NCBI GenBank assembly: GCA_965223265.1 | Contig: OZ244999.1 | Coordinates: 5,440,001 to 5,504,000, forward strand | Length of the DNA: 64,000 bases | Source: Planctomycetota bacterium | Lineage (GTDB): Bacteria; Planctomycetota; UBA8108; SXIK01 | Reading direction: 5' to 3' | Part shown: positions 3,795 through 64,000 of the stretch, in pieces | How the letters are laid out: every line of letters starts with the position of its first letter | Numbering within the stretch: the first letter of the stretch is position 1 | Translations under genes and position numbers: made by a program | Notes under the pieces: model-generated | Seen by the model: the letters and a program-made list of their open reading frames with translations, nothing else | Databases searched by the model: none | Told to the model about the DNA's origin: nothing

Positions 3795-6700
3795 ATGGTA
3801 ACTTCCGCGAACAAGGTGAACGAGCTCGCTGAACAGATCCTGACGGCGGCGCGACTGAAGCTGACGGGGACAATTCGGGTCAAGAGCACTGACGAGCAAC
3901 GAAAGCAGATCCTCGTGATCGGCGGTTACATCGCCGACGTCGATACCGGACGCGAACAAGGCGTCCTCGAAACAGCTCTCATCCGCACCGAAGGTTTCTC
4001 CCCCAAGGATCTCAAGCGCGCACAGAAAACTGCAGCGAAACAGAAGATCCCGATCGGCGTTGCACTCCTCGATACGGATCTAGTGCCTCAGGAGGTCGTG
4101 GCCGAGTTCGTCCAGCTACAGCTACTCGACGAAATCTGTGAGGTTTTCAGCTGGGACGTCGAGAGTTCAGACTGCCACCAGCACGCTGAAGGTGAACGGC
4201 TGGAAGATTTCCAGTCCGATCTTTCGGACTACCTCGATGTCTATTTGGACGGCGAAGAAGTTTTCCTTGAAGCAGCGCGCTGCCTGAGCGACTGGGAGCT
4301 GGTGACGCTGCACTTCGACGTCTTGCGAGACGTCTTTTATGCCACGCCTAGTAGCTTCCAGTACTTCAAGGCCCAGGATAGCTTTCCTGAGGAACACGCC
4401 ATTATCGGTGCCGTCGATGGCATAAAAGACATCGAAGAGGTCGTCATCGCTTCGGGCCTGGACCCGTTCCAGGCACTGAAAATCGTTCGACGGCTGATTG
4501 CGAGCACGGAACTCGAGCTCGTCAATCCAGTGCAGATGTATCAACTCGGTGTCGAGTCCGCCGCGGCTGACAATCACGAGAAGGCCTGCCGGCTCTTCGT
4601 GCGCGCGCACGAGAGAGGCCTCGATGACTTCGACCTTCAGCTGAAGATGGCGCAGACATTCGAGGCTCTCGGTCTGAAGAACGAGGCTGGGCAATGGTAT
4701 CGTCAGTTCGCCGAGAAGTGCCTCGATCAGTTGCGTACCGACGAAGCCGCGCGTGCCTTGAAGAAAGCGGTTCGTTTCGAACCCGACAACATGGATCTGA
4801 GGGAACAGTACCTCTCACTCGTGTTTCAAAACGGGAGCCGAGAGGAGGCCATCGATGAGTTGGTCGACCTCGCAGAACGGAAAGCTTCTCAAGGCCACTT
4901 CGATGCAGCGCTGTCTCTACTGGTCCACCACCAAGACGACGGCGAACAAGACGTCAAGTTACAGCAAAAGATCATCGAGCTGGCAGAGACGGCCGGCAGG
5001 CATGATATCGCGGCTCGCGAACGCGAGGCTCTCGCAAAGGGTCTCGAGCAACGCAAAGACGTCGAGTCCGCACTTGGCGTCTATCAGAGAATGTTTTGTG
5101 ACGGAGACGACTCCATCGACGTGCGTCTCAAGTTGATCGAGCTGCACCACAAGAGCGGCAACCGGAACAAAGCGCTAGATCACCTCCAGAACATTCTGAA
5201 CTTGCCTCCGAAGCAAGGTGTTCGTGACCCCGAGACTCTCCGGGGGCTCCACGAGACCATGCGCGAACTCCGCCCGGCGGATCGTGTGTCGAACCAATGG
5301 CTGGTCAAGTTCCACTCAGAGAACGGCGACGACGCTCAGGCCGCTAACGTCTTGACCGAGTGGATCGGCCAACTTGAGCGGGAGAGCGAGAGCGAAACAG
5401 ACGACCTCGAGAACGCCTATCAGCAGCTCATAGCACTCGACGATCGCACCGAGTTCCGTTGGGGTCTCGCCGCAACGCTCGAGCGTGCGGGAAAGCTTGC
5501 AGAGGCACAGCGCGAGCTTCGCAGCCTGGCGAACCTTTCGCTTCGCAAGCAGGACTACGAGCAAGCTATGAAAGCGCTCGACTACATTCTCAAGCGCGCG
5601 CCATTCGACATCGAAACGCGAAAAATGCAGGCGGAGCTCTACGAAGCACAAGGGGACCGCCCGCTGGCCGCAAAGAAGTGCAAGGAAATTGCATTCCTCG
5701 ACATCGTCTCCGGCAACGTTCAGGAAGCGGAGCAGTTCTGTCGCCAAGTGCTCGTGATCGAACCAACCGACGCCGAAATGGTCACCAAACTCGGTGAGCT
5801 GTGCGAAGACTCCGGTGACGTGCGCAAGGCTGAAGAACAATACCTCAAGGCTGGAAAGATCCACTTCAAGAACAAGAATTACGGTTTTTGCCACGCGGCC
5901 GTCGAACGCTTGCTGAAGCTCGATGCTGGACATGCGGAGGGCTTAGCGCTGCTCGAAGAAGTCACTGCGCAGCTCGAAGGCGCCGCGACGCGGAGCACAG
6001 TGGCTTCACCAGCCGCCGCGGTTCCTGCTGCGACGACGCCGGCGCCTACGGCGCCGCAAGGTCAGACCGCTGCACCAGCGGCAGCGGCGGCGTTGCAAGT
6101 TGCCGCTTCAGCACCAGCACCGGCGGCAGCATCGTCGACACCTCAAAAGGAGTTCTTTCAGCCTCCACCTCCTGTCGTCACAACGGTGTCGAAGAGTATG
6201 GCACGGCTTCGCCAGCTAAAGTCAAAGAGCACCCCACCGGCGGTCGAGCTTTCAGCAGGCGAGACCAGCTCAGAGGGCGCTCCCGCTCAGACCAGCGTTG
6301 GCGGCGGCGGACGAACGGCGACCGTCAGCGTCACGAACGTGGCGGCCAAGCTCATGGCGATGAAAGGGGGCCCCGCACCCGTCGCCATGAGCGCCCAAGA
6401 ATCACCTGACGACAATGGAGCGCCGCCAGAAGCGGAAGCGACAGGCTCAGCTCCCGCGGACCCTGCAGCGACGGCTCCCGATCCAGCACAAACAACACTT
6501 CCGCCCGCAGATCCCACGGCGTCGGCGCCAAAGACTGGCGGCAAATTGGCGTCGGCGAACGCTGCCCTGCATGCAGCGGCGTCTCGCCTCAAAGCACTCG
6601 CTGGGCGCAAGGGTGGTGGCGACGACGCGGATGGACCTGGCGTGACCGCCGACGCCACCGCGACGGGCACCAGCGCCGCGGCTGGTGACGCATCCGTCCG

Positions 6701-9607: not shown

Positions 9608-10498
9608 ATGACGCTTCGAACGAAAACGATCGCCTCTCTCACGTTACTTCTGGTTGGCGCTGTAGCGGCTGCGCGCACGCCCCCTGCGACTGCCGTGGAG
9701 AAAACGAACGAAGCCGTCGGGACCCAACAAGAGAGCAGCCGCCACATCGTCGTCGAGGAGGATCGCGTCTACGGGCGCGTCCACGGCGCAGCGTTGCTCG
9801 CGGACATCGCCTACCCAGTGCAGGGAGACCCGGTCCCAGCACTGATTTCCGTCCACGGCGGGCGCTGGCGCGGCGGCCACAAGCGCGACGCCTCGACGAT
9901 CAAAGTGCGGCAGTGGGCTCACTTTGGATTCTTCTCGATGTCGATCGACTACCGTCTCGTCGGCTGTTCCCCTGCCCCTGCATGCTACCAAGACCTTCAG
10001 TGCGCCATTCGCTTCGTGCACGCGCAGGCTAAGCGTTACAACATCGACACCGACCGCATCTTCTTGATGGGACAATCCGCCGGTGGCCACCTCGTATCGC
10101 TCGCTGCGACCATCGGCGATGGCCCCTTCGAACGCACCGGCGGTTGGAAGGAGGCGAAGAACGACGTCCGCGCGGTCATCAGCGTTGCGGCTAACTACGA
10201 ACTGACGACGCTCAGCTGGGGCGACATCTGGACGCCCGCGGAGGGCGACGCCGTCGCCGCCAGGCGATTCGCCTCCCCAGTCAACCACGTCACCAAGTCG
10301 ATGAAACCGATTCTGATCCTCCACTCCGACAACGACCGCTCGGTCCCCATCGAGAACGCGCTTGGCATGGTCGAGGCCTTAAAGAAGGCAGGCGCGACGC
10401 ACACATTTCACCGCTATCCCGAGATGGGGCACATGGGCATCAACGACGAGGTGATCAGGCGTTCACTGGAGTTCATCGAGGCGCAGTCAGCACGCTGA
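9608..10498 (+). CDS. Secreted alpha/beta hydrolase (Aes/BD-FAE-like esterase)
   Basis: HGGRW oxyanion motif, GQSAGG nucleophile elbow, HSDNDRSV, GH. Signal peptide from ATG 9608 with GAGGA RBS. Confidence 0.88.
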   Translation: MTLRTKTIASLTLLLVGAVAAARTPPATAVEKTNEAVGTQQESSRHIVVEEDRVYGRVHGAALLADIAYPVQGDPVPALISVHGGRWRGGHKRDASTIKVRQWAHFGFFSMSIDYRLVGCSPAPACYQDLQCAIRFVHAQAKRYNIDTDRIFLMGQSAGGHLVSLAATIGDGPFERTGGWKEAKNDVRAVISVAANYELTTLSWGDIWTPAEGDAVAARRFASPVNHVTKSMKPILILHSDNDRSVPIENALGMVEALKKAGATHTFHRYPEMGHMGINDEVIRRSLEFIEAQSAR

Positions 10499-18700: not shown

Positions 18701-19627
18701 CTATCGCGCCGTGAGCTCTTCGTAGATCTTGGCAATCTGCGCCTGGAAGCGCTCGCCAACATAGCGCTCGAGCGCTGCCGGCACTTTGACCGATTGCTGC
18801 AATTCCTCGAGGCTCTTGCCGGCGGCGATGCCGTCGCGCACGGCAAACCGCAGCGTAGCGATGTAACGTCGTTGCAGCTCGATGAGGCTGCGATCGCCGC
18901 ATGGTCCGTGCCCCGGGGCGACGACTTCGACATCGAGTTCGAGTAGTGCGTCGAGGACATCGAGCCATGAGCCGGTGTCCCCGTCGCCCATGTAGTTGTA
19001 CGGTCCATTGACGACCGTGTCGCCGGTGTAGAGCACTTTCTCCTTGGGCAGGTAAGCAAAACCATCGCCGCGGGTGTGGGCAGTGCCGAAGTGAAGCAGC
19101 TCCATCCGCCGCTTCCCATCGTCGATGACCATGCGTCGAGGATACGTGAGGACCGGCAGCATCGGACCGTCGCGCTTGAGCGCGCGAATGTCGGCACGTT
19201 TCTCCTCCTGCTCTGCCCAACGCTGCGGCTCGAAACGCTTGAACTCCTCGACTACCTTCTCTGCAGCGACCGGCAGTGCGCCGTGCCGCCGCCAAATGGG
19301 ATTCCCATAGGCGTGATCGCCGTGGTGGTGCGTGTCGAACACGAAACGCACCGGATGGGATGTGCGTTCACGGATGTCCTTCAGACACGCTTCGGCACCG
19401 CTAGGAAAGTTGGCGTCGACGACGACGACGAAATCCTCAAAGACGACGAAGCCGTTGTTACAGTGTGACTCGCCCTTGAGATCGCCGTGACGGAAGAAGA
19501 TGCCAGGTGCAAGTTCGGCGACGTCGTTCTTCGACGTTTCTGGAATCGGGCTCAGAAGCGCGGCAGCGGCGCCCATACTCATGGTCAACATGACGAGGAA
19601 GGCAGGCACCAAAGTTCGACGTTTCAT
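18701..19627 (-). CDS. Secreted MBL-fold metallo-hydrolase
   Basis: THHHGDHAYGN, AHTRGD, YTGD, PGHG. Confidence 0.92.
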   Translation of the reverse strand: MKRRTLVPAFLVMLTMSMGAAAALLSPIPETSKNDVAELAPGIFFRHGDLKGESHCNNGFVVFEDFVVVVDANFPSGAEACLKDIRERTSHPVRFVFDTHHHGDHAYGNPIWRRHGALPVAAEKVVEEFKRFEPQRWAEQEEKRADIRALKRDGPMLPVLTYPRRMVIDDGKRRMELLHFGTAHTRGDGFAYLPKEKVLYTGDTVVNGPYNYMGDGDTGSWLDVLDALLELDVEVVAPGHGPCGDRSLIELQRRYIATLRFAVRDGIAAGKSLEELQQSVKVPAALERYVGERFQAQIAKIYEELTAR

Positions 19628-19908
19628 GGAATCTCCTAGGCTCGAGCTCGACCGATCAGGAGGTGTCGGTTCCGTAGATAGCAGACTTCGCCTGCAAATT
19701 GTCGCCATGAGGTTCGGATTCGGCAACCGGATTCAGTCAACGTCCGTCTGCAAGCGATCTACCCGTAGCGTCGCGAGTTCTGCGAGCAGCGAAATTCTCT
19801 CTCGGCCAGCGGGAATCTTTCCGGTATCCTCGATTCGTACGCTAACCTCGCGTACTCTTCTGGCTCGATTCAGATGAGTATGCGCCCGCTCATCGAAGGC
19901 CCTTTGGG

Positions 19909-61112: not shown

Positions 61113-62366
61113 ATGGCCACTGAATCGATCGACACCGCGTCCGGCGGCGCGCGCCGCTGGTACGAGCGCATCGGCCCAGGCATCATCACCGCCTGCGTCG
61201 TCATCGGCCCAGGAAGTATTCTGACAAGCTCGAAGACGGGTGCAGCCCACGGTTACTCGTTGGCGTGGGTTGTTGCTGCAGCCGTCGTTTTCATGCTCGT
61301 CTTCATGACACTTGGCGCCAAACTCGGCGTCATCGCGGGCACCTCGCCGGGCGACCTCATCAGAGCACGAGGAGGACGCCCTCTCGCGATCCTGATCGGC
61401 GTCGGAATCTTCATGATCTCGGCCGGCTTTCAGTTCGGCAACAATCTGGGCGTGCACTCTGCCTTTGCGGCGCTTGGATTGGAATGGGACTATACGGCGG
61501 TCGCGTTCAATGCTGTTTCGATTCTGTTTCTTTTCGGCTTCAAGAATCTCTATCGTGCTGTTGAACGCCTGATGATGGGGCTGGTCGGACTGATGCTCCT
61601 GTCGTTCGTCATCAACCTCATATTCGCCAAGCCGCACCTCGGCGAGTTGGCTGCAGGCTTTCTCCCAGGTCGCACGAAAATTGACATCACCCTCCTTGGA
61701 CTCGTCGGCACGACATTCGTCGTCTCAGCGGGGTACTTTCAGGCTTTTCTCGTGCAGCAGAAAGGCTGGGGGAAGCCTGAGCTACGCAGCGGACTGCTGG
61801 ACGCTCGCGTCGGTTCGGTGATCATGGCGCTCATCACGCTGATGCTGATGTGGACTGCAGCGGCCGGTCTGCGTAACGAGTCGCTCAACAACGTCGAAGA
61901 AGTCGCGCAAGGGCTCAACCCACTCTTCGGCGGTTGGGGTCAGCCCATCTTCTGCCTCGGACTCTTCTCTGCTGCCTATTCTTCCTTCCTGGTGAACTCG
62001 ATGATCGGTGGGTTCATTCTGTCGGACGGACTGGGCTTAGGCTCGAAGCCAACGGACCGCTGGCCACGTTTGTTCACCGTCTTCGTTCTGCTCACCGGCA
62101 TGTTCATCGCGCTCTACGCGATCAAATCAGGAACGCGCCCAGTCGCCGCGATCGTGACAGCACAGGCGCTGACGGTCATTGCCTCACCGCTCGCCGCCGG
62201 CGCGCTTCTGTGGCTAACCAACCGACGCGACGTCATGGGGGAGGAGCGCAACGGCCCGCTCCTCAACATTCTCGGCGGCCTGGGATTCCTCATTCTCCTG
62301 GCCATGGCGTGGCGGACGGCCGCGTACAACGTGTGGCCGGCGATCGCGGCTTGGCTTGAGGGCTAG
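61113..62366 (+). CDS. NRAMP-family divalent metal transporter
   Basis: IGPGIITACVVIGPGS, FQFGN, LVGTT, about 11 TM helices. Confidence 0.9.
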   Translation: MATESIDTASGGARRWYERIGPGIITACVVIGPGSILTSSKTGAAHGYSLAWVVAAAVVFMLVFMTLGAKLGVIAGTSPGDLIRARGGRPLAILIGVGIFMISAGFQFGNNLGVHSAFAALGLEWDYTAVAFNAVSILFLFGFKNLYRAVERLMMGLVGLMLLSFVINLIFAKPHLGELAAGFLPGRTKIDITLLGLVGTTFVVSAGYFQAFLVQQKGWGKPELRSGLLDARVGSVIMALITLMLMWTAAAGLRNESLNNVEEVAQGLNPLFGGWGQPIFCLGLFSAAYSSFLVNSMIGGFILSDGLGLGSKPTDRWPRLFTVFVLLTGMFIALYAIKSGTRPVAAIVTAQALTVIASPLAAGALLWLTNRRDVMGEERNGPLLNILGGLGFLILLAMAWRTAAYNVWPAIAAWLEG

Positions 62367-62386
62367 TCCCAGGACGAAGAACGGCC

Positions 62387-62553
62387 GCGTTTGCGTTTGC
62401 GTTTGCGTTTGCGTTTGCGTTTGCGTTTGCGTTTGCGTTTGCGTTTGCGTTTGCGTTTGCGTTTGCGTTTGCGTTTGCGTGGCCGTGGCCGTGACCGTGA
62501 CCGTGACCGTGACCGTGACCGTGACCGTGACCGTGGGCGCGCGCCTCTGTCTC
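62387..62553 (+). repeat. Composite hexamer microsatellite C: (GCGTTT)15 GCGTGG CCGTGG (CCGTGA)7 CCGTGG plus GCCTCTGTCTC tail
   Basis: Seen directly. Confidence 0.95.
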
Positions 62554-62555
62554 AA

Positions 62556-62593
62556 GCCCGCCGTGTTGCACATGCACGGCGGGCCCGAGGCCC
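62556..62593. terminator. GC-rich hairpin(s) at the 3' end of the four-helix-bundle gene
   Basis: GCCCGCCGTG / CACGGCGGGC 10-bp perfect stem; no U-tract. Confidence 0.5.
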
Positions 62594-62598
62594 CTGCG

Positions 62599-62922
62599 TC
62601 AGTGCGTCAGCTTCCAGAGCATCGCCTGCAGCGCATCGACGTCCGCAAGTACCGAGTCGATTTGCGACGCATCGATATAGCCCCATGCCGCAGCAACCTT
62701 GAGCGCCGTGCGCACCTCTTCAGCGCTACCTGAGGCAACGCGCCAAAGATGCCCGCGGTCGCGACCTTGACGCCGATTGCCCTCAGCAAGGTTGAGTGCC
62801 ACGGACGAACCGGCATCGCGCAGCTGAGCGGCAAGCTTTGAGTCGTGACGACGGATACTCGAGACGAGGGGTCGCAGCTGACGAACTATGCTAAAAGTGT
62901 GATCCAGAGCGAGAAAGCCCAT
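62599..62922 (-). CDS. Four helix bundle protein (TIGR02436 / 23S-IVP / Avd-like fold)
   Basis: LAAQLRDAGSSVALNLAEG...VASGSAEE...WGY...MLWKL; GGAG RBS 7 nt before ATG. Confidence 0.93.
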   Translation of the reverse strand: MGFLALDHTFSIVRQLRPLVSSIRRHDSKLAAQLRDAGSSVALNLAEGNRRQGRDRGHLWRVASGSAEEVRTALKVAAAWGYIDASQIDSVLADVDALQAMLWKLTH

Positions 62923-62989
62923 GTGTGACTCCGGTAACGGCCCAGTGAATTGTCGCCGACGCCCGACGCGGCGGCGTTTCACTGCCGCC

Positions 62990-63073
62990 AACCGAACGAG
63001 AGACGGGGTCAAGGGCGCGAAGCGCCGAGCGCAGCGAGGGCACCCTTGAGGCCGGCTCTCGTTCGGTTACGAT
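62990..63073 (+). promoter_or_regulatory. Long hairpin, candidate ssDNA (Frpo-like) promoter for the four-helix-bundle gene
   Basis: AACCGAACGAGAG (62990-63002) pairs with CTCTCGTTCGGTT (63056-63068); TCAAGGG/CCCTTGA inner stem; TTGAGG-16nt-TACGAT on the 3' arm. Confidence 0.65.
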
Positions 63074-63152
63074 CGACAAAACCGCCGACGCACGCACGCC
63101 TGAAGCAGCAGAGCTCTTCTCTGCCCTCGGCTCGAGCGCCGCTACCGCGCAC

Positions 63153-63410
63153 CGGTTTGCGTTTGCGTTCGCGTTTGCGAGGGAGTGGGAGTGGAGTACT
63201 CCGTCTCTGTCTCTGTCTCCGCCTCTGTCTCCGCCTCTGTCTCCGTCTCCGCCTCGGTCTCCGTCTCCGTCTCCGTCTCGGTCTCCGTCTCGGTCTCGGT
63301 CTCCGTCTCGGTCTCCGTCTCCGCCTCTGTCTCCGTCTCCGTCTCCGCCTCTGTCTCCGTCTCCGTCTCCGCCTCTGTCTCTGTCTCCGTCTCCGTCTCT
63401 GTTTCTGACT
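63153..63410 (+). repeat. Composite hexamer microsatellite D: GCGTTT block, GAGTGG block, GGAGTACTCC, then about 34 CCGTCT/CTGTCT/CCGCCT/CGGTCT units
   Basis: Seen directly. Confidence 0.95.
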
Positions 63411-63464
63411 CTTCCTCTATCCAATCTCCACGCTCCCCCCTAAAGCCCCAGCCCGACGAAAGAC

Positions 63465-64000
63465 TCAGATAAAGTCCAGCGCGCAAAGGTGGTCGAAATA
63501 CGCGTTCTTGTTGCCGCTGTCCTTTTGGCCGCAGACGCGCATGATCTCTGCGTAGGCTTGATGCAGGCGCGAGCTCGAAGCGCGGATCGCTTCGTGCTGT
63601 CGCATGGTGGGTCCCGGCTGGTAGTCGAAGTGCTGCCGAACCCCCGAGGCGTTCCAATCGGCGAAGTACCTTCCTTGCGCTTCGATGGCTTCGACGACGA
63701 GTCGGTGGGCTTTCTGGAGAGAGGCAGGGGCGTTGAGGCGGCGCAACTCCTTCAGCACGGAATCGATTTCCGTCTGATACTGCTCAAAAGGCTGCCCACG
63801 GCGACCTCGCGACTGAAAGTAGCGCAGGGTGGCAACACGCGCCACCATAGCGTGATCGACGAGCGTAAAGAAGCGATGGAGGAACGCCTTACTCCCATCA
63901 TCGAGGCGCGCACCTTGACTGCGAAAGGTGGTTTGCCGGTGAGGGATCGCACGGTAGGCCTCGGAAATCGCCATTGGCCCTCGCGCGTTGACAAGCATGG
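63465..64000 (-). CDS. Hypothetical protein (5' end may lie outside the window)
   Basis: Open frame to the window edge, helical, ends DHLCALDFI. Confidence 0.7.
   Translation of the reverse strand, partial: MLVNARGPMAISEAYRAIPHRQTTFRSQGARLDDGSKAFLHRFFTLVDHAMVARVATLRYFQSRGRRGQPFEQYQTEIDSVLKELRRLNAPASLQKAHRLVVEAIEAQGRYFADWNASGVRQHFDYQPGPTMRQHEAIRASSSRLHQAYAEIMRVCGQKDSGNKNAYFDHLCALDFI

Follow-up and report, generated by a model that had tools for sequence, protein, structure and literature searches.

Near the end of a 64,000-nucleotide stretch of DNA from a Planctomycetota bacterium (contig OZ244999.1 of assembly GCA_965223265.1, positions 5,440,001 to 5,504,000 of the forward strand; hereafter the window), the minus strand carries a gene of 107 codons plus stop (62599-62922) that is preceded by a long imperfect palindrome (62990-63068, assigned to no strand). 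This palindrome, referred to here as the hairpin, is the subject of the present analysis. It had been described in an initial annotation of the window as a promoter that acts only from single-stranded DNA, like the Frpo promoters of plasmids. It turns out to be more than an isolated hairpin, being the control module of a cassette with many copies and belonging to an unannotated family that extends across phyla. The genome that holds the window, G000 in what follows, is a single contig of 9.18 Mb; gene sense refers to the minus strand of the window and antisense to its plus strand.

The gene, said to encode a four-helix protein, does match the family PF05635 (23S rRNA intervening-sequence protein / four-helix bundle) with an E value of 1.9e-15 (57.4 bits against a cut-off of 33.8), and its product matches the PDB entry 2GSC (E 1.8e-6). 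Between the gene and the hairpin there is a conserved leader (62923-62989, minus strand, known from the alignment), in which the Shine-Dalgarno (SD) sequence GGAG occupies 62930-62933, and 14 nt past the stop codon there is a terminator-like GC hairpin (62556-62584, minus strand) followed by CUUGA, or by UUUG in most copies. Hairpin, leader, SD, 107-aa open reading frame (ORF) and terminator-like hairpin, usually adjoining hexanucleotide microsatellites, form a self-contained cassette of which the hairpin is the upstream control module.

In G000, the hairpin core recurs at 42 loci. It lies upstream of 36 of the 39 PF05635 matches of this genome, in the same orientation and at 180-266 nt from core centre to Pfam match, and all 36 cassettes have an ORF of 104-107 aa, with the ATG 132-155 nt from the start of the core, and a strong GC hairpin just past the stop (-23.5 to -42 kcal/mol in the 70-nt tail) whose stem sequences differ between subfamilies; the six other core loci are truncated or have no gene. 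The whole unit measures 0.55-0.62 kb (62574 to approximately 63125-63194) and has 17 further copies of 77-89% identity, while the 42 nt of the core are 95-100% identical between subfamilies, which makes the core better conserved than the coding sequence. The locus in the window is one copy of a multicopy and probably mobile cassette. The designation of a chromosomal gene is right as to location, given that the neighbours (an Nramp gene and an ORF of no assigned family) are chromosomal, and as a single gene it understates what is found. The cassette had not been described before, and its tie to hexanucleotide microsatellites is reproducible and odd.

The hairpin itself is defined by folds, by its 42 loci and by covariation. 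In the predicted structure, a 13-bp outer stem (62990-63002 with 63056-63068, that is, A62990-G63002 with C63056-T63068) is followed inwards by a 3-bp middle stem (63004-63006 with 63052-63054) and by the conserved core (63009-63049), which is delimited by alignments, by exact-pattern matches in other phyla and by double changes in helix P2, and which is approximately 100% conserved across cassette subfamilies. Helix P2 (TCAAGGG at 63009-63015 with CCCTTGA at 63043-63049) encloses a mini-hairpin (63014-63026; GGCGC-GAA-GCGCC on the plus strand, GGCGC-UUC-GCGCC in gene sense) and a one-sided bulge of 16 nt (63027-63042; GAGCGCAGCGAGGGCA on the plus strand, UGCCCUCGCUGCGCUC in gene sense) that is near invariant save for one middle letter, 63032. 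Both triloop motifs pointed out by the initial annotation are present on the plus strand, GCGC-GAA-GCGC (within 63014-63026) and CCGAGC-GCA-GCGAGG (63026-63040), and the former contains the heptamer GCGAAGC (63017-63023), the classic, very stable DNA mini-hairpin.

Folded as DNA, the plus strand of 62975-63085 reaches -32.3 kcal/mol, as opposed to -21.6 ± 2.6 in 200 shuffles, none of which is as good (z -4.18), so the hairpin is real. The idea that its triloop structure is stable on one DNA strand only is not borne out by the energy model, in which the minus strand folds equally well (-32.2 kcal/mol, z -4.30). As RNA, the gene-sense strand of the window reaches -59.7 kcal/mol (z -5.17) and the antisense strand -48.8 (z -2.48).

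Two promoter-like boxes are found on the plus strand, the -35-like TTGAGG (63046-63051) within helix P2, where most other copies have TTGACN, and the -10-like TACGAT (63068-63073) at the base of the stem. The first stands opposite GGTCAA (63007-63012), as had been noticed, with TTGA paired to TCAA and both G opposite G. As for the second, which had been taken for a fork junction with all but its first letter unpaired, the fork is there (T63068 is the last stem pair and A63069 is unpaired) and the opening is incomplete, as C63070-G63071 form a 2-bp helix with 62986-62987 and the remainder of the box is open. When the flanks are included (62962-63092; -42.6 kcal/mol, z -4.69), an outer helix also seen in the alignment (62969-62979 with approximately 63079-63089, plus strand) closes the internal loop that holds the tail of TACGAT. 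The gene-facing strand reads TTGACC, 16 nt and then TGGCGG in the place of a -10, exactly as described. A consensus scan calls a sigma-70-like site on neither strand at the hairpin, and no intrinsic terminator is called in 62300-63500, nor does a U-tract follow the hairpin.

The covariation analysis of homologous upstream regions that the initial annotation had proposed gives a clear result, in that strong covariation is seen in the flanking stems. Across at least three subfamilies, the outer stem changes by compensatory pairs around a gene-sense core, TCAAGGGTGCCCTCGCTGCGCTCGGCGCTTCGCGCCCTTGAC, that hardly varies. In a multi-phylum alignment of 39 sequences (alignment A3, which takes three G000 copies and three copies of the planctomycete G007 only and excludes L170, permuted, L158 and L189, with the 3' arm deleted, the short variants L160, L161 and L167, and L180), 87.8% of the cells pair, compared with 78.3% in shuffles; double changes occur at 15 of 32 pairs, and the covariation score is 0.223, compared with 0.076 ± 0.007 after shuffling (0 of 500 shuffles reach 0.223) and approximately 0.05 with the partner slid. 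The double changes in P2 go from G-C to A-U and U-A. The stem of the mini-hairpin covaries as well (GGCGC/GCGCC, GGCGGC/GCCGCC, GGCGAC/GTCGCC): among 24 sequence variants it is perfect in 21 by an end-to-end check, and the other three fit a shifted or shorter stem by eye. This maintenance of pairing through varied sequences identifies P2, the one-sided 16-nt bulge and the mini-hairpin as the conserved unit. The triloop is mostly U-N-C in gene sense, which corresponds to G-N-A on the plus strand, and both triloops prefer G-N-A there. In the outer helix, CGGCGGCG/CGCCGCCG is invariant in 46 of 46 copies, and G021 has a different yet complementary pair of sequences. Alignment A2 and covariance model R1 exclude the five G000 copies with a foreign 5' arm.

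The -10-like box follows a pattern of its own. On the plus strand, TAnnnT is present in 28 of 37 G000 copies (five of these rows were taken from alignment A1 by eye), at 15 or 16 nt after TTGAnn, in all nine copies of G007, in both copies of G021 and in the metagenome locus L181; it is missing from the two copies of Co_bin.297, from L186 and from all 29 copies that have no PF05635 gene downstream. Four or five of the lineages linked to PF05635 have retained the arrangement TTGAnn-N15/16-TAnnnT, in which the middle triplet takes twelve different forms, and despite differing stems every TAnnnT lineage has the T in the last pair of the stem, followed by the A as first unpaired base. Loss of TAnnnT from the stem base among homologs had been named beforehand as an argument against a promoter; in these four or five lineages the box is kept. 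On the sense strand, a relaxed scan (at least 8 of 12 matches, up to 400 nt upstream) finds no site in 31 of 36 cassettes, and its sense-strand sites are confined to five cassettes that share a foreign 5' flank, while the same scan gives 15 antisense sites, every one of them inside the hairpin, which is the only recurrent site. The cassette is complete, with its own terminator-like hairpin in 36 of 36 copies, and yet for the most part has no recognisable promoter directed at the gene, which argues for one within the hairpin.

The distribution of the element outside G000 is patchy. Elsewhere in the class the copy number of PF05635 is 13, 4, 3, 2, 1 or 0, with no match in three genomes of the same family. 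A covariance model finds the element in 4 of 59 class genomes (40, 14, 2 and 1 matches), and in a sample of 151 genomes of the phylum only in G000 and one class member. An exact 27-nt core pattern matches 23 stretches of species genomes, 11 in G007 and 12 in eight other metagenome-assembled genomes (MAGs; labelled Thermoanaerobaculia, Vicinamibacterales, Acidobacteriota, 'beta proteobacterium', Hydrogenedentota and unclassified bacterium), as well as 40 metagenome contigs; these scans fixed all letters but two, so that the invariance within those 63 loci is by construction. PF05635 lies downstream of the core in just 4 of the 52 loci outside G007, again with microsatellites. Neighbouring genes in the other phyla are co-oriented upstream in 9 cases versus 4, and downstream in 7 versus 7. 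In the four Acidobacteria and Hydrogenedentota genomes searched the core is present in a single copy, and acidobacterial copies have other stem ends. Two MAGs have it downstream of a MobA/MobL relaxase gene and a 159-aa ORF, and in two metagenome contigs it is contained, circularly permuted, in attC-like sites, the core antisense being the attC bottom strand. The permutation implies that the conserved unit is helix-bulge-helix and not one particular hairpin. These two contigs, L170 (core at approximately 10465-10491) and L171 (42-68), hold arrays of attC-like sites with TAACAA...GTTA ends, of which one site each bears the core, with the P2 end closed and the opposite, mini-hairpin end open.

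No family of this description was found in the collections searched. Among the Rfam 15 covariance models, the hairpin of the window is overlapped only by chance-level matches to eukaryotic microRNA precursors (E 1.4-3.4, far below gathering scores), nothing overlaps the element in 19 loci from other phyla or in the plasmid loci, and a search by sequence strings did not find the core sequence in print. The element is a structured motif of wide distribution that Rfam 15 lacks, a helix-bulge-helix family found across phyla. Several copies of the acidobacterial type have a second conserved module (…GCCTCCGGCGGGGGCTCC…) after the hairpin, and just beyond it, 160-190 nt past the start of the core, begin the transposase ORFs of L166 and L188, which are IS110-like (MDRFIGIDVH...) and ISL3-like (families named by eye). 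The PF05635 genes of L079 (G005), L082 (G017) and L083 (G014) have unrelated long hairpins at the same place; that of G005 is a perfect 31-bp hairpin straight after a (CGGACT)n array, and its 3' arm holds the SD, 6 nt before the ATG.

Diverged relatives are found on plasmids. The acidobacterial version of the element gives weak matches in Sinorhizobium and Methylovirgula plasmids, where the architecture is CCGGCCGCG-TCAAGGG-bulge-CCGGC-TGC-GCCGG-CCCTTGA-CGCGGCCGG, and this plasmid version plus its leader matches 444 Rhizobiales plasmid records, 322 of them typed as conjugative. Among the matches listed (40 of 444), the hairpin stands between, or at, a DUF3991-toprim (primase-like) gene and a DUF1419 gene. 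In Ti-type plasmids the origin of transfer (oriT) is located between traC and traA, and in pTiKerr27 and pRM41A a distance of 12-20 kb separates this interval from the spacer with the hairpin, which is found on the side that does not face the relaxase gene. The cluster of the fully annotated pTiKerr27 includes genes for ImuA, a Y-family and an error-prone polymerase, ParB-N, ArdC and DUF736; pRM41A, whose annotation is incomplete, has DUF736 and, in the place of ArdC, a gene with a zincin-like metallopeptidase domain. The genes of both clusters are mostly directed toward oriT, in pTiKerr27 toward traGDC-oriT-traA, and the orientation of the plasmid relatives would place the same hairpin strand on the transferred strand. 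According to the literature, leading-region genes are oriented for transcription from the transferred strand, hairpin promoters of the Frpo type are common there, and the relaxase typically enters last (PMC11541004). In pTiKerr27 (L206), two 'mobile mystery protein' genes (18749-19803) stand between the DUF3991-toprim gene and the hairpin, which keeps to the DUF1419 side, and pRM41A (L203) carries the alpha-proteobacterial small RNA ar15 (Rfam RF02345, 116.5 bits) at 4734-4844, 1.2 kb from the hairpin.

The interpretation to which these observations tentatively point, with a probability of roughly one in three, is that of a promoter in hairpin form on the plus strand. The active form would be the hairpin of the antisense strand, arising from single-stranded DNA or by cruciform extrusion of the palindrome. 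Helix P2 would supply the -35 (TTGAnn) as duplex, the covarying stem would serve as the 15-16 nt spacer, the last stem pair and the first unpaired base would be T(-12) and A(-11) of TAnnnT, and the outer helix would provide the downstream duplex. A bound sigma-70 polymerase may then copy the 5' arm into the PF05635 gene, with a start near 62977, while in ordinary duplex DNA the same boxes face away from the gene. The hairpin-form promoter is placed first, ahead of a structured RNA leader by a narrow margin, because it alone explains an invariant -35 helix, a covarying spacer of fixed length and a box with paired T and unpaired A found only before a gene. Its relatives occur where DNA turns single-stranded, that is, on conjugative plasmids, beside MobA/MobL genes and in attC-like sites. 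Given a core that is near letter-for-letter in distant phyla and diverged in the first-transferred regions of plasmids, a single-strand promoter is a serious, if unproven, proposal. A wider version of it, which is possible and carries still less conviction, holds that the TCAAGGG helix-bulge-helix defines a class of sites, spread across phyla, at which polymerase enters on a hairpin, be it as a promoter, a primer site or both. PF05635 would then be switched on only when the antisense strand is single-stranded or the palindrome extruded, and the flanking hexanucleotide microsatellites, which are prone to non-B structures, may help to drive the extrusion.

Several findings weigh against the hairpin-form promoter. 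The plasmid, mobilisable-element and acidobacterial relatives lack TAnnnT (0 of 29), so that part of the family falls outside it; most lineages have a spacer of 15 nt, the window copy has 8 of the 12 consensus letters and is uncalled by the scan, and the region upstream of the -35 (63027-63042) is G+C-rich, with no A+T-rich UP element. The window hairpin is unmatched in 72,556 plasmid records, which makes it unlike the known Frpo sequences that those records should contain, and the window PF05635 protein has no plasmid match by tblastn. The locus is chromosomal and one of 36 dispersed copies, G000 has no MobA/MobL relaxase, DUF3991 primase or integron integrase among the genes searched for, and the promoter would need a source of single-strandedness at a chromosomal locus. 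Replication was rejected as such a source: the origin of G000 is near 7.93 Mb and its terminus near 3.53 Mb, and relative to these the cassettes show no strand bias (21 co-directional, 15 head-on), the plus strand of the window copy being the leading-strand template. In the plasmid relatives, orientation relative to the transferred strand cannot be separated from that relative to transcription. As RNA, 36 of 46 copies fold better on the gene-sense strand, G.U wobbles in the arms number 77 in sense and 50 in antisense, and a U.G pair occurs at one stem position in 25 of 39 sequences, conserved U.G pairs being found on the sense strand only; folded as DNA, the plus strand is slightly better in 28 of 46 copies, by a mean margin of less than 1 kcal/mol. 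Of the original proposal of a single-strand promoter for a chromosomal gene, then, the boxes, the spacing and the fork position are conserved, the outer helix is kept and relatives do occur in leading-region-like clusters of plasmids, while the missing strand bias, the missing mobilisation genes and the wobble pairs tell against it.

These strand signals are what would be expected if the hairpin were instead transcribed in gene sense, by read-through out of the upstream gene of like orientation or from an unrecognised promoter, and its long helix processed, stabilised or insulated the PF05635 message, much as the PF05635 genes inside 23S rRNA intervening sequences are freed by cleavage of a long stem. 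Such a structured RNA leader is a doubtful reading, and one to be taken seriously. By crude gene calls, made with a codon log-likelihood caller, 26 of 34 cassettes have a co-oriented gene as nearest upstream neighbour and 25 of 35 a convergent one downstream, and seven convergent pairs of cassettes agree with this; among the plasmid matches listed (40 of 444) the element lies between, or at, two co-oriented genes, both relaxase-linked MAG copies sit after the 3' end of a gene, and the unrelated hairpin of G005 has the SD in its 3' arm. However, a bulge and helix that are letter-perfect across phyla would be unusual for a stability or processing hairpin, there is no match to an Rfam family and no trailing U-tract, and in 8 of 34 cassettes the upstream neighbour is divergent, with no sense promoter found. 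This reading also leaves unexplained why TAnnnT, with free middle letters, is placed at the stem end in PF05635-linked copies only, and why both triloops are biased to G-N-A on the other strand.

An unlikely reading makes the hairpin a single-strand recombination or mobility site (attC-, REP- or HUH-like), with an invariant bulge recognised by a trans-acting enzyme that would move the cassette or the hairpin alone. It is consistent with 36 cassettes in G000 and none in three genomes of the same family, with the patchy spread, with the permuted core inside two attC-like sites of cassette arrays, with the transposase genes that abut the copies in L166 and L188, with breakpoints of truncated copies inside the core, with one paralog that lacks exactly the hairpin and leader, and with AAC...GTT at the stem base. 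It is opposed by letters beyond AAC and GTT that are not complementary, by copies that are dispersed rather than arrayed, by a hairpin upstream and not downstream of the ORF, by acidobacterial copies that have other stem ends and occur once per genome, and by the lack of any identified target duplication or empty site; membership of an integron was rejected, as G000 has no integron integrase (TIGR02249 at best 96 bits against a cut-off of 265). An ordinary duplex promoter firing away from the gene, in an outward or insulating role and with the palindrome there for another reason, is improbable: some copies do have TTGACT-15-TACACT (9 of 12) or TTGACA-15-TACCAT (10 of 12), but the window copy has only 8 of 12 matches and the spacer of 15 nt is short, the promoter would aim into microsatellites and against an upstream gene that is usually co-oriented, and the covariation of the stem and the position of paired T and unpaired A would go unexplained. 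Least probable of all is a relic, that is, a palindrome inherited along with a selfish repeat and now without function in G000. The 5' arm or the -10-like box is gone from nine of 37 G000 copies and P2 is interrupted by a 13-nt insertion in four, with ORFs still intact, as such a relic would allow, but between subfamilies the core is better preserved than the coding sequence and compensatory changes persist. K-turns, HDV-like (hepatitis delta virus-like), twister and pistol ribozymes and a bulge acting as anti-SD were dropped by eye, because the defining nucleotides or pairings are missing. A resemblance of the bulge to a MOBQ nick region would be conjecture.

The hairpin can also be compared with known systems. 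The Frpo/ssi elements of F and ColIb-P9 are described as one-strand hairpins that mimic a duplex -35/-10 before a small gene, with the folded strand as template (PMC11541004). The window hairpin has the same geometry, a -35 in the stem and an opened -10, conserved in four to five lineages, and its relatives stand in leading-region-like clusters of Rhizobiales plasmids. It differs in being chromosomal and multicopy, in its G+C-rich sequence without A+T-rich UP element or match in plasmid records, and in its 15-16 nt spacer; placement in a leading region is seen only in the diverged plasmid relatives, which have no -10-like box. The single-strand origins (sso) of rolling-circle plasmids and the primase-specific single-strand initiation sites (ssi) are long strand-specific DNA hairpins at which host polymerase or plasmid primase primes the complementary strand. 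They would suit the copies beside a MobA/MobL or toprim gene with no gene downstream, whereas the PF05635 copies precede a gene with an SD in a genome that has no matching primase or relaxase. The attC sites of integrons, too, are imperfect palindromes (60-140 nt), which function as folded single strands next to small ORFs without promoters, and two attC-like sites hold the core of the hairpin; the cassette differs in having neither integrase nor arrays, a hairpin upstream of the ORF and a poor fit beyond AAC/GTT. The intervening sequences of 23S rRNA have the same protein family, PF05635, beside a long helix, but the window locus lies between protein genes, not in rRNA, and its helix is wholly upstream and does not enclose the ORF. 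Like REP (repetitive extragenic palindromic) and ERIC (enterobacterial repetitive intergenic consensus) sequences, the hairpin is a multicopy, intergenic, imperfect palindrome mostly downstream of co-oriented genes; unlike them, it is tied to PF05635 at a fixed distance in 36 of 42 loci, and its core crosses phyla and is single-copy in the Acidobacteria searched. 6S RNA, an open-promoter mimic, also is a long helix with a central loop resembling an open complex, but there is no match to 6S in Rfam and 36 copies are each tied to an ORF. Finally, intrinsic terminators differ from the hairpin, which has no U-run, and the 3' hairpin of the cassette is terminator-like with UUUG only.

The remaining features of the locus concern the surroundings of the cassette and its copies. 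The upstream flank (63074-63150, minus strand) is conserved in the cassette subfamily of the window only, where the repeat unit ends at approximately 63125-63194. Hexanucleotide microsatellites lie on the 3' side of the cassette, (CGTTTG)n and (GTGACC)n at 62387-62535, and on the 5' side, a short (GTTTGC)n followed by (GTCTCC/GTCTCT)n at 63157-63402; further upstream there is a co-oriented ORF of 177 aa (63465-63998, minus strand) with no Pfam match. In G000 as a whole, 291 of 326 tandem repeats (206 merged arrays) have a period of 6 or 12, and an array of this kind precedes 25 of the 36 cassettes at a distance of up to 400 nt. Microsatellites, with differing units, also stand beside the PF05635 genes of G007, G021, G005, G017, Co_bin.297 and L181, and many units are polypurine or alternating purine-pyrimidine. 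The seven convergent pairs of G000 join cassettes of different subfamilies 1.1-1.4 kb apart (G000:C1, 7189158/7190515, 7450422/7451773, 8303198/8304543, 8370704/8372056, 8820167/8821291, 8978429/8979569 and 9141554/9142865). The paralog without hairpin (G000:C1:5176171-5176586) has an intact PF05635 match, and what is missing from it is precisely the hairpin with most of the leader (window 62940-63063); its junction has a few shared letters, and the same joint is seen in contigs of three of four public DNA runs. Presence/absence polymorphism of the cassette was not found in four public short-read metagenome runs, in which contigs break at repeats and joints match paralogs only. The insertion of approximately 13 nt (CTGAGAGTGACCGC-like) in the 3' strand of P2 is common to the G000 copies 906395, 7190515, 7739258 and 8370704, three of which have a full PF05635 match. 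G000 also has four near-identical reverse-transcriptase genes (1895554, 3424405, 3516453, 5913461) and four near-identical tyrosine-recombinase genes (96878, 2249231, 3519399, 3569525), none of which adjoins a cassette; a retroelement link was discarded, as all four reverse-transcriptase genes are far from cassettes.

PF05635 is an abundant family of four-helix proteins with no assigned role, to which the accessory protein of diversity-generating retroelements is related, and if the hairpin is indeed a promoter, this family gains a testable condition of expression. Single-strand promoters would then be neither confined to plasmids nor a curiosity of enterobacterial ones, and in soil and aquatic phyla they could be recognised by a motif that has no annotation and is easy to search for. 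If the cross-phylum class is real, promoters of the Frpo type would extend to Rhizobiales conjugative plasmids, mobilisable elements, integron cassettes and the PF05635 cassettes of Planctomycetota, and the 444 Rhizobiales plasmid copies offer a tractable system for the question. Even if the hairpin acts as RNA, the motif is widespread, structured, outside Rfam 15 and preserved letter for letter across phyla, and it marks a previously undescribed cassette.

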